In this document: in pieces, positions 2,307 through 2,918 of the stretch
Layout: each line of letters opens with the position of its first letter
Position numbering within the stretch: position 1 is the stretch's first letter
DNA from: a virus
Taxonomy: Duplodnaviria; Heunggongvirae; Uroviricota; Caudoviricetes
Direction: 5' to 3' (one strand)
DNA: 11,000 nucleotides
IMG/VR virus record: IMGVR_UViG_2740892233_000009
Notes under the pieces: generated by a model
Told to the model about the DNA's origin: nothing
Databases searched by the model: none
Seen by the model: only the letters and a program-made list of their open reading frames with translations
Made by a program: the position numbers and the translations under genes

Positions 2307-2621
2307 TTATGACATTGCTGCAAGGCTCAGCGCGTCTTCCAGCGCCGCAAACGGATCCACCTCCGGCTTATCCTCATCCTCGCCCCAGCAGAGCATGGCG
2401 TCCTTCAGTGCAACATTCATCCCCTGTGCCCCGAAAACCGCTTTCACGATCTGTGCATTACGGATATCCCCGCGCTCATCACCCAGCGGGGACACCCTGT
2501 CAAACTCCATCCACATCATCGCCTCGCTCGCACTCAGGCTGTGCCGCAGTTCGGATAAGGTGCGCCCCAGACGGAGCGCAAGTCGCATCAGAAAGCGAAT
2601 TTCCGGGCGGGCTACTTTTTT
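2307..2621 (-). CDS. Tail assembly chaperone T-like extension, expressed as a G-T fusion by -1 frameshift (allele 3)
   Basis: The -1 frame relative to G is open from about 2636 to the stop at 2307 (...VARPEIRFLMRLALRLGRTLSELRHSLSASEAMMWMEFDRV...). It overlaps the G 3' end, where the slippery heptamer lies. Position between G and tape measure matches the conserved G/GT arrangement. Confidence 0.65.
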   Translation of the reverse strand, partial: KKVARPEIRFLMRLALRLGRTLSELRHSLSASEAMMWMEFDRVSPLGDERGDIRNAQIVKAVFGAQGMNVALKDAMLCWGEDEDKPEVDPFAALEDALSLAAMS

Positions 2622-2918
2622 CTGGCCGACTCTGCATCAGCGATCAGTTCCAGTGCCTGACGCAGCAACCGGGCATGTACCGGACCATAGACGGCCAGCA
2701 CCTGCTCACGGTCGTCCGGAGTGAACACCCGTTGCAGGTCAGTATCACACAGGACATCGCAGAACAGCGTCACATCCGCTTCCAGGTTACGGCGGGTTTT
2801 CGCCACCACCGACAGGGTATCGTCATCCTCTCCATCACCATTGAGCACTTCCTTCCACAGATACCAGGCCTCTGCCGAAGGCTCCCGCAGCACCACGCTG
2901 ACATTTCTCCATTCCGGC
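2612..2918 (-). CDS. Tail assembly chaperone G-like, C-terminal 102 codons
   Basis: ORF ...PEWRNVSVVLREPSAEAWYLWKEVLNGDGEDDDTLSVVAKTRRNLEADV...ELIADAESARKK, stop TAG at 2614-2612. Acidic small protein between the major tail and tape measure genes. The N-terminus is on pieces 2929-3009 and 3429-3561. Confidence 0.65.
2615..2621 (-). other. Programmed -1 ribosomal frameshift slippery heptamer A_AAA_AAG at the 3' end of the G-like gene
   Basis: Minus strand reads GCC AGA AAA AAG TAG in the G frame (stop at 2614-2612). The -1 frame reads CAG AAA AAA GTA GCC and continues open into T. Confidence 0.6.

Follow-up and report, generated by a model that had tools for sequence, protein, structure and literature searches.

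The question raised by this locus is how the T protein of a prophage tail is made: whether ribosomes that are translating the upstream gene, G, slip by one base and continue into T, or whether T is a separate gene with a start of its own. The G/GT frameshift, conserved in the long-tailed phages, fixes the ratio of chaperones that is needed for building a tail of the right length. An earlier note on this DNA had read the end of G as a canonical -1 frameshift site joining the two tail chaperone frames. We examined the anatomy of the overlap, the protein families encoded on either side of it, the related loci of other phages and prophages, and the candidate signals around the site. We conclude that a programmed -1 ribosomal frameshift on the heptamer A_AAA_AAG very probably yields both G and a G-T fusion.

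The window, i.e., the whole 11-kb stretch of DNA that was analysed, is not a continuous sequence, as it is made up of 23 fragments joined by runs of ten Ns (these include 205-214, 426-435, 1320-1329 and 8223-8232). A prophage locus of a finished E. coli genome (L142, from NZ_CP027591.1, the best-matching finished genome) served as the reference for mapping the fragments, and adjoining ones cover overlapping intervals of it at 85-100% identity. Overlapping intervals at differing identities indicate alternative allelic pieces, the typical assembler output for related prophages, and judged by their sequences the fragments are allelic unitigs of several co-resident lambdoid prophages, representing one tail/head module. 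Open reading frames that span the N gaps, including those of G, the tape measure gene and a 399-aa frame at 202-1401, are artefactual joins.

The module genes of the window lie on the minus strand, and Pfam searches identified capsid, portal, head-tail connector, head completion, HK97-gp10-like and tail completion gp17 families, as well as two tail proteins: a major tail tube protein whose C terminus bears an Ig domain, and a tape measure protein represented by its start. Read along the minus strand, the major tail tube gene (3567..4283; Phage_tail_2, Phage_TTP_11, and Ig_2 for the C-terminal Ig-like domain) is followed by G, T and the tape measure gene, which begins at 1851 (1402..1851; TMP_3) on a fragment that stops at an N gap. 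The same order is annotated in identical prophages. The slip site occurs once in the window, on a fragment of 640 bp (2279-2918), and is absent from the allelic fragments 1991-2268, 1435-1980 and 3429-4341, which start downstream of it or end upstream of it. A second T allele, with DNA 94% identical, is represented by its C-terminal 83 codons only (2018..2268, minus strand) and begins downstream of the slip site.

Several other features of the module were recorded. On the minus strand of fragment 1435-1980, in the interval that separates the T stop from the start of the tape measure gene, a short GC hairpin is followed by a T run (1865-1900; AACCGCTGAGGCGGTTTTTTTACG). By eye, and in this one allele, it resembles an intrinsic terminator; it was not reported by the consensus scan, and the other alleles differ from it in sequence (TAAATAATGATGAAAACCTGCTGTGGCAGG). 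In L142 the tape measure gene beside G and T (L142:2164-3640) is annotated as a frameshifted pseudogene. Further along, at 6939-8321, two long overlapping frames lie on opposite strands (436 aa on the minus strand and 423 aa on the plus strand), with no convincing Pfam match. The DNA of this interval matches regions of Stx phages annotated as 'portal protein' or 'hypothetical protein'. The matches fall in four to five places of each record, a pattern suggestive of a gene with internal repeats.

The G frame is interrupted in the window. Its main part (2612..2918, minus strand, within an open reading frame of 2612..2935) runs from an N10 gap to the stop codon, on a fragment that corresponds to the L142 reference interval 1501-2140 at 99.7% identity. 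The gap itself (2919-2928), which has duplicated flanking bases, separates this part from the 5' end of a G allele on another fragment (2929..3008; MKKDLKTLALARLSGFRHKTVKVPEW), with its ATG at 3008..3006. That fragment is only 85% identical to the reference and is thus a divergent allele. Within the window the G N-terminus is found on two allelic fragments, starting at ATG 3008 (MKKDLK...) and at ATG 3561 (MAKDLK...), and complete genomes carry an intact G of 124 aa. The reconstructed 124-aa protein matched Pfam PF06222 (Phage_TAC_1) from end to end (E 4.8e-61, 204.6 bits against a cut-off of 25). The G part also matched the PDB entry 2ob9, 'Tail assembly chaperone' (E 9e-46), and PHROGs labels it 'tail assembly chaperone' as well.

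At its 3' end the G frame closes with AGA AAA AAG TAG, so that, as the earlier note had stated, the heptamer A_AAA_AAG stands straight before the stop; this was borne out on the minus strand at 2621..2615. The minus-strand text reads ...GCA GAG TCG GCC AGA AAA AAG TAG CCC GCC CGG AAA TTC GCT TTC TGA TGC.... The heptamer holds the G-frame codons AAA (2620..2618) and AAG (2617..2615) in the canonical X_XXY_YYZ phase, and the TAG stop (2614..2612) abuts its 3' end. The T frame is closed upstream by a TGA (2639..2637), seven codons before the slip, and any shift into T is therefore confined to a window of eight codons that holds the heptamer. With uniform base composition, the chance of finding this specific heptamer in phase within eight codon positions is about 5e-4, and that of finding any X_XXY_YYZ is about 3%.

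The mere presence of the heptamer carries little weight. The window contains two copies of AAAAAAG where 0.9 would be expected, and two copies are also reached in 42 of 200 shuffled sequences. As this count is insignificant, the weight of the argument comes from the phase and position of the heptamer, from conservation and from the T domain that Pfam recognises in the -1 frame. The second copy (10752-10758, minus strand) lies inside a capsid-family frame (10216-10989, minus strand), where it is read AAA AAA Gnn, out of X_XXY_YYZ phase, and shows no sign of being a recoding site.

Downstream of the heptamer the -1 frame is open, as had been noted, for 102 sense codons rather than the approximately 105 first given; these run from GTA (2615..2613) to TCA (2312..2310) and are followed by a TAA stop (2309..2307), the frame as a whole spanning 2307..2615 on the minus strand. 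Its translation from G2615 is VARPEIRFLMRLALRLGRT... / VARPEIRFLMRLALRLGRTLSEL..., and the junction proposed in the earlier note, ...ESARKK-VARPEIRF..., proved correct on translation. The -1 frame product belongs to Pfam PF06223 (Phage_tail_T, the lambda T family; E 5.9e-19, 68.7 bits against a cut-off of 25.9) and matched phrog_337 (E 5e-42). A further PHROG profile of 224 positions, phrog_14766, is matched by G over positions 2-122 and by T over positions 125-222. As one profile covers both G and T, it must have been built from fused G-T proteins, and annotated fusions of this family exist. No NCBIfam model matched G or T.

Between the slip site and the ATG used as the T start in public records (2588..2586) lies a linker of 27 nt that encodes VARPEIRFL in the T frame (2589..2615, minus strand). 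No ATG, GTG or TTG occurs in the T frame from the TGA at 2639..2637 to the ATG at 2588, and thus the conserved peptide of the linker could be translated only by ribosomes arriving from G. The nucleotide entropy at the three T-frame codon positions, calculated over 48 unique linkers of 27 nt, is 0.80, 0.86 and 1.45, respectively. The proline at linker position 4 and the phenylalanine at position 8 are kept in 47 of these 48 sequences, while the third positions of their codons vary freely. This pattern of substitution indicates that the linker is under protein-level selection in the T frame.

To see how general this arrangement is, related loci were collected from one-genome-per-species bacterial contigs (56 loci) and from IMG/VR viral contigs (80 loci), together with five annotated records. 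Both the G and the T motifs could be located in 139 of them (56 genome loci, 78 IMG/VR prophages and the five annotated records), and the genera represented include Enterobacter, Kosakonia, Klebsiella, Raoultella, Morganella, Proteus, Providencia, Xenorhabdus, Serratia, Pectobacterium, Brenneria, Pantoea and Erwinia. T lies in the -1 frame relative to G in 137 of the 139 loci, and all 137 carry an in-phase A_AAG inside the G/T overlap, even though this overlap is five codons or fewer, down to three, in 30 loci. The heptamer is A_AAA_AAG in 113 loci, A/G_GCA_AAG in ten, G_GAA_AAG in seven (HK97 included), G_GGA_AAG in five, and A_GAA_AAG and G_GTA_AAG in one each. All 78 scorable viral loci have A_AAA_AAG. 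Prophages of genome 643348545 (e.g., L100, L125 and L126) were also examined, of which L125 and L126 have A_AAA_AAG followed by TAG.

T has a conserved Phe-Leu-Met, whose distance from the slip AAG is 27 nt in 132 loci; the five loci with G_GGA_AAG have 30 nt instead. The G stop follows the AAG directly in 51 of 70 unique contexts and elsewhere lies one, four, five or eight codons further on, and the spacing from slip to Phe-Leu-Met stays fixed even where the stop has moved in this way. Conservation thus applies to the slip codon and to the register that it keeps with T, and the stop is free to move. Across the family, selection has kept the A_AAG invariant and in phase and the linker at a fixed 27 nt; the 5' triplets are interchangeable and the stop floats. 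The reading of the locus as a G/T tail chaperone frameshift is supported by this conservation, by the protein families and gene order, and by the record of phage HK97 considered below.

The non-canonical sites of the family (G_GAA_AAG, R_GCA_AAG and G_GTA_AAG) sit at exactly the register of A_AAA_AAG; they are found in L003-L008, L020, L139 (HK97), L021, L025, L026, L028, L035, L037, L046, L047, L055, L057 and L058. The two loci in which T is not in the -1 frame differ in the length of the A run. In Candidatus Symbiopectobacterium endolongispinus, an endosymbiont (L054:2791-3000), the run is A9, with one extra A, and G and T are fused in frame; this variant encodes exactly the predicted junction, ...AKKKVTQPGMQFLM.... 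In Serratia sp. L9 (L042:2798-3007) the run is one A shorter and T falls in the +1 frame. These homopolymer variants may be real mutations in decaying prophages, or they may be sequencing errors. One viral contig (L097, IMGVR_UViG_3300029191_000019) has a deletion: its T frame is cut about 11 codons past the ATG and then continues, over about 300 codons, into a tail gene lying downstream, and the contig is probably a degraded prophage.

The main alternative to a frameshift is that T is a separate protein of 93 aa, initiated at ATG 2588 either independently or by reinitiation after the G stop, in which case the overlap and the heptamer would be functionless. This is how public records annotate T, and the ATG is well kept, being present in 63 of 65 unique contexts. 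It lies 24 nt past the G stop, and four contexts have an extended G frame whose stop overlaps it as TGATG. In the other two of the 65 contexts, both from Xenorhabdus (L027 and L036), a CTG takes its place, which counts against the separate-gene reading. Nor does the ATG have a convincing initiation signal. When Shine-Dalgarno (SD) pairing was compared across the eight genes of the module, using their annotated starts, the T ATG was the weakest at -3.5 kcal/mol, against -5.8 to -12.8 kcal/mol for the other seven, and SD pairing at least as strong occurs upstream of 55% of the locus's ATG trinucleotides. The T frame has a candidate start, though one with a poor ribosome binding site. A gene beginning at this ATG would also leave the nine codons before it, which vary synonymously and contain no start codon, with no reason to be conserved as protein, and it predicts neither the in-phase A_AAG nor the fixed 27-nt spacing. 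We consider a separate T, made in place of the fusion, to be quite improbable.

A product identical to that of the ribosomal shift would arise if RNA polymerase added one A within the A6 run, as the edited mRNA would encode the same ...RKK-VARPE... in frame. Such transcriptional slippage is a known bacterial route (PMC5009743). The A run has six residues in the window and seven to eight in many relatives, and its genomic length does vary, as the A9 of L054 and the shortened run of L042 show. An A6 run is, however, shorter than those documented for efficient transcriptional slippage. Moreover, 24 loci keep the whole architecture with only three to four A residues (GCA_AAG, G_GGA_AAG, G_GAA_AAG including HK97, and GTA_AAG), and the phase of A_AAG, which is conserved throughout, is indispensable to the re-pairing of a tRNA but of no consequence for RNA polymerase. 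Transcriptional slippage is disfavoured on these two grounds and appears very improbable. The same homopolymer indels in relatives, together with the patchwork of short fragments and N gaps that makes up the window, could also suggest that a frameshift mutation or an assembly error has split one G-T gene, the heptamer being coincidental. But the slip site lies well inside a single 640-bp fragment that is 99.7% identical to finished genomes, and the same -1 layout recurs in 1246 complete E. coli genomes and in nearly all the collected loci, which come from many genera. With the arrangement conserved to this extent, a decayed or mis-assembled gene is effectively refuted.

The earlier note had compared the heptamer with that of E. 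coli dnaX. The identity of the heptamer holds, but the upstream SD and downstream hairpin that stimulate shifting at dnaX are absent. Folding downstream of the heptamer was weak, with z-scores of -0.8 over 102 nt and -2.0 over 60 nt, and RNAalifold applied to 31 relatives returned no consensus pairs. Two local hairpins showed no covariation, with 62.0% of positions paired against 61.6% in shuffles; the stronger of these starts 34 nt after the stop and mirrors the conserved ALRLGR codons. A downstream RNA stimulator was accordingly rejected on the weak z-scores, the empty consensus and the lack of covariation. As for a dnaX-like SD upstream of the heptamer in the window, the anti-SD pairing of the 16 nt concerned amounts to only -2.4 kcal/mol, which places it at the 62nd percentile among G-gene windows. 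Across the family the upstream pairing is mildly enriched (mean -4.6 vs -3.2 kcal/mol), with a strong-site fraction equal to background (18% each). Some relatives carry GGAG or GAGGAGG upstream of the heptamer, and the acid-rich peptide encoded there may explain the enrichment. As the window has no SD-like element upstream, the efficiency of frameshifting may be low. Lambda G-T is not known to need an RNA stimulator, and no conserved one was found for the family of the window either; lacking dnaX-like signals, the site resembles that of lambda in consisting of the slippery sequence alone, to which a stop is adjacent here.

We therefore return to the ribosomal frameshift as the preferred reading, for which the following course can be proposed. 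Most ribosomes on G would stop at the TAG and release the 124-aa protein. A minority would slip one base back on A_AAA_AAG, where the single tRNA-Lys of E. coli could re-pair from AAG to the overlapping AAA. The heptamer is especially shift-prone in E. coli because this tRNA pairs weakly with AAG (PMC5009743). The slip could involve two tRNAs, or it could take place in the P site with the slowly decoded stop codon in the A site. Reading would then continue as GTA GCC CGC... for the 102 codons of T, giving a predicted G-T fusion of about 226 aa with the junction ...ESARKK-VARPEIRFLMRLALRLGR.... By analogy with lambda gpG and gpGT, G and the G part of GT would coat the tape measure protein, and the rare T domain would recruit the major tail protein, so that tube polymerisation may be nucleated at a fixed, low proportion of GT to G.

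The conservation of the T ATG allows a further, more speculative idea alongside the frameshift. The ATG might serve as a termination-reinitiation start for free T, and the alternation of A_AAA_AAG with G_GGA_AAG and minimal N_NNA_AAG sites within the family, at zero to eight codons from the stop, might tune the G:GT:T ratio between co-resident prophages. We regard this as unlikely, although if true, free T would be a departure from the lambda paradigm. Lambda T is not known outside GT.

The element is common in E. coli. The 640-bp fragment is 99.4-99.7% identical to Stx1- and Stx2-converting and related prophages (BP-4795, Stx2a_WGPS2, phage 2851 and others). Of 5426 complete E. coli genomes, 1246 contain it, with a maximum of seven copies in a genome. 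The near-identical prophage records that were examined all give G and T a coding sequence each, that of T comprising 93 aa from the ATG equivalent to 2588, and a 67%-identical phage record likewise lists them separately. The fusion coding sequence is missing from every near-identical record examined, including the single RefSeq E. coli locus that was opened. The public start of T is thus placed nine codons too late, in an element carried by about a quarter of complete E. coli genomes. This correction and the family-wide view of the invariant features are mildly useful outputs of the analysis, which opens no new question. A search of a limited literature collection returned nothing specific on this exact site in Stx prophages, and nothing specific on experimental data for HK97 gp13/gp14. 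The AAAAAAG described in PMC7556043 was set aside, being the site of an IS3-family transposase rather than of a tail gene.

Of the characterised systems, the closest relative is HK97 gp13/gp14, with 59.7% identity over 99% of the fusion (tblastn); PDB 2ob9 is the solved structure of its G protein. The GenBank record of HK97 gives gp13 as 'tail assembly chaperone' and gp14 as a two-piece joined coding sequence 'translated due to a -1 frameshift'. As in the window, HK97 combines a PF06222 G with a PF06223 T in the -1 frame, and in both the pair falls between the genes for the major tail protein and the tape measure. The distance from A_AAG to Phe-Leu-Met is again 27 nt, and the linker motif V-x-x-P-G/E-x-x-F-L-M is common to both. 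HK97 differs in its slip sequence, G_GAA_AAG, which lies outside canonical X_XXY_YYZ, whereas that of the window is canonical. Furthermore, the G frame of HK97 (...EKSQPPA*), like that of HK97-type loci in general, continues for five codons past the slip, whereas the heptamer of the window abuts TAG, and a moron gene (gp15) stands between T and the tape measure gene in HK97.

The lambda gpG/gpGT system (G_GGA_AAG) shares with the window its logic, its position among the tail genes and the T family (Phage_tail_T), and its heptamer is used by five relatives within the family of the window. The two differ in the G protein, which in lambda is from a Pfam family other than PF06222, in the heptamer, and in the stop that adjoins the slip site in the window. 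In lambda the ratio of G to GT is about 30:1 and matters for tail assembly, and G-T frameshifting is widely conserved (PMC5009743).

The E. coli dnaX gene (gamma/tau) has the identical A_AAA_AAG and the same tRNA-Lys slippage chemistry (PMC5009743). Its frameshift product is the shorter protein, whereas that of the window would be the longer one. At dnaX the upstream SD-like stimulator and a nearby downstream stem-loop give a frameshift efficiency of about 50%, whereas at the site of the window these are neither present nor conserved. A_AAG on its own is a minimal -1 site, e.g., A_CGA_AAG in Bacillus cdd and G_CGA_AAG in IS1222 (PMC5009743). The family members with R_GCA_AAG, G_GAA_AAG and G_GTA_AAG are similar to these and appear to use the same single tRNA-Lys slip, in contrast to the window, which has the full two-tRNA heptamer. 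Placed among these systems, the site is a member of the HK97 gp13/gp14 family and represents the lambda-type G/GT frameshift of a lambdoid (HK97-like, Stx-type) E. coli prophage, which is already known biology.
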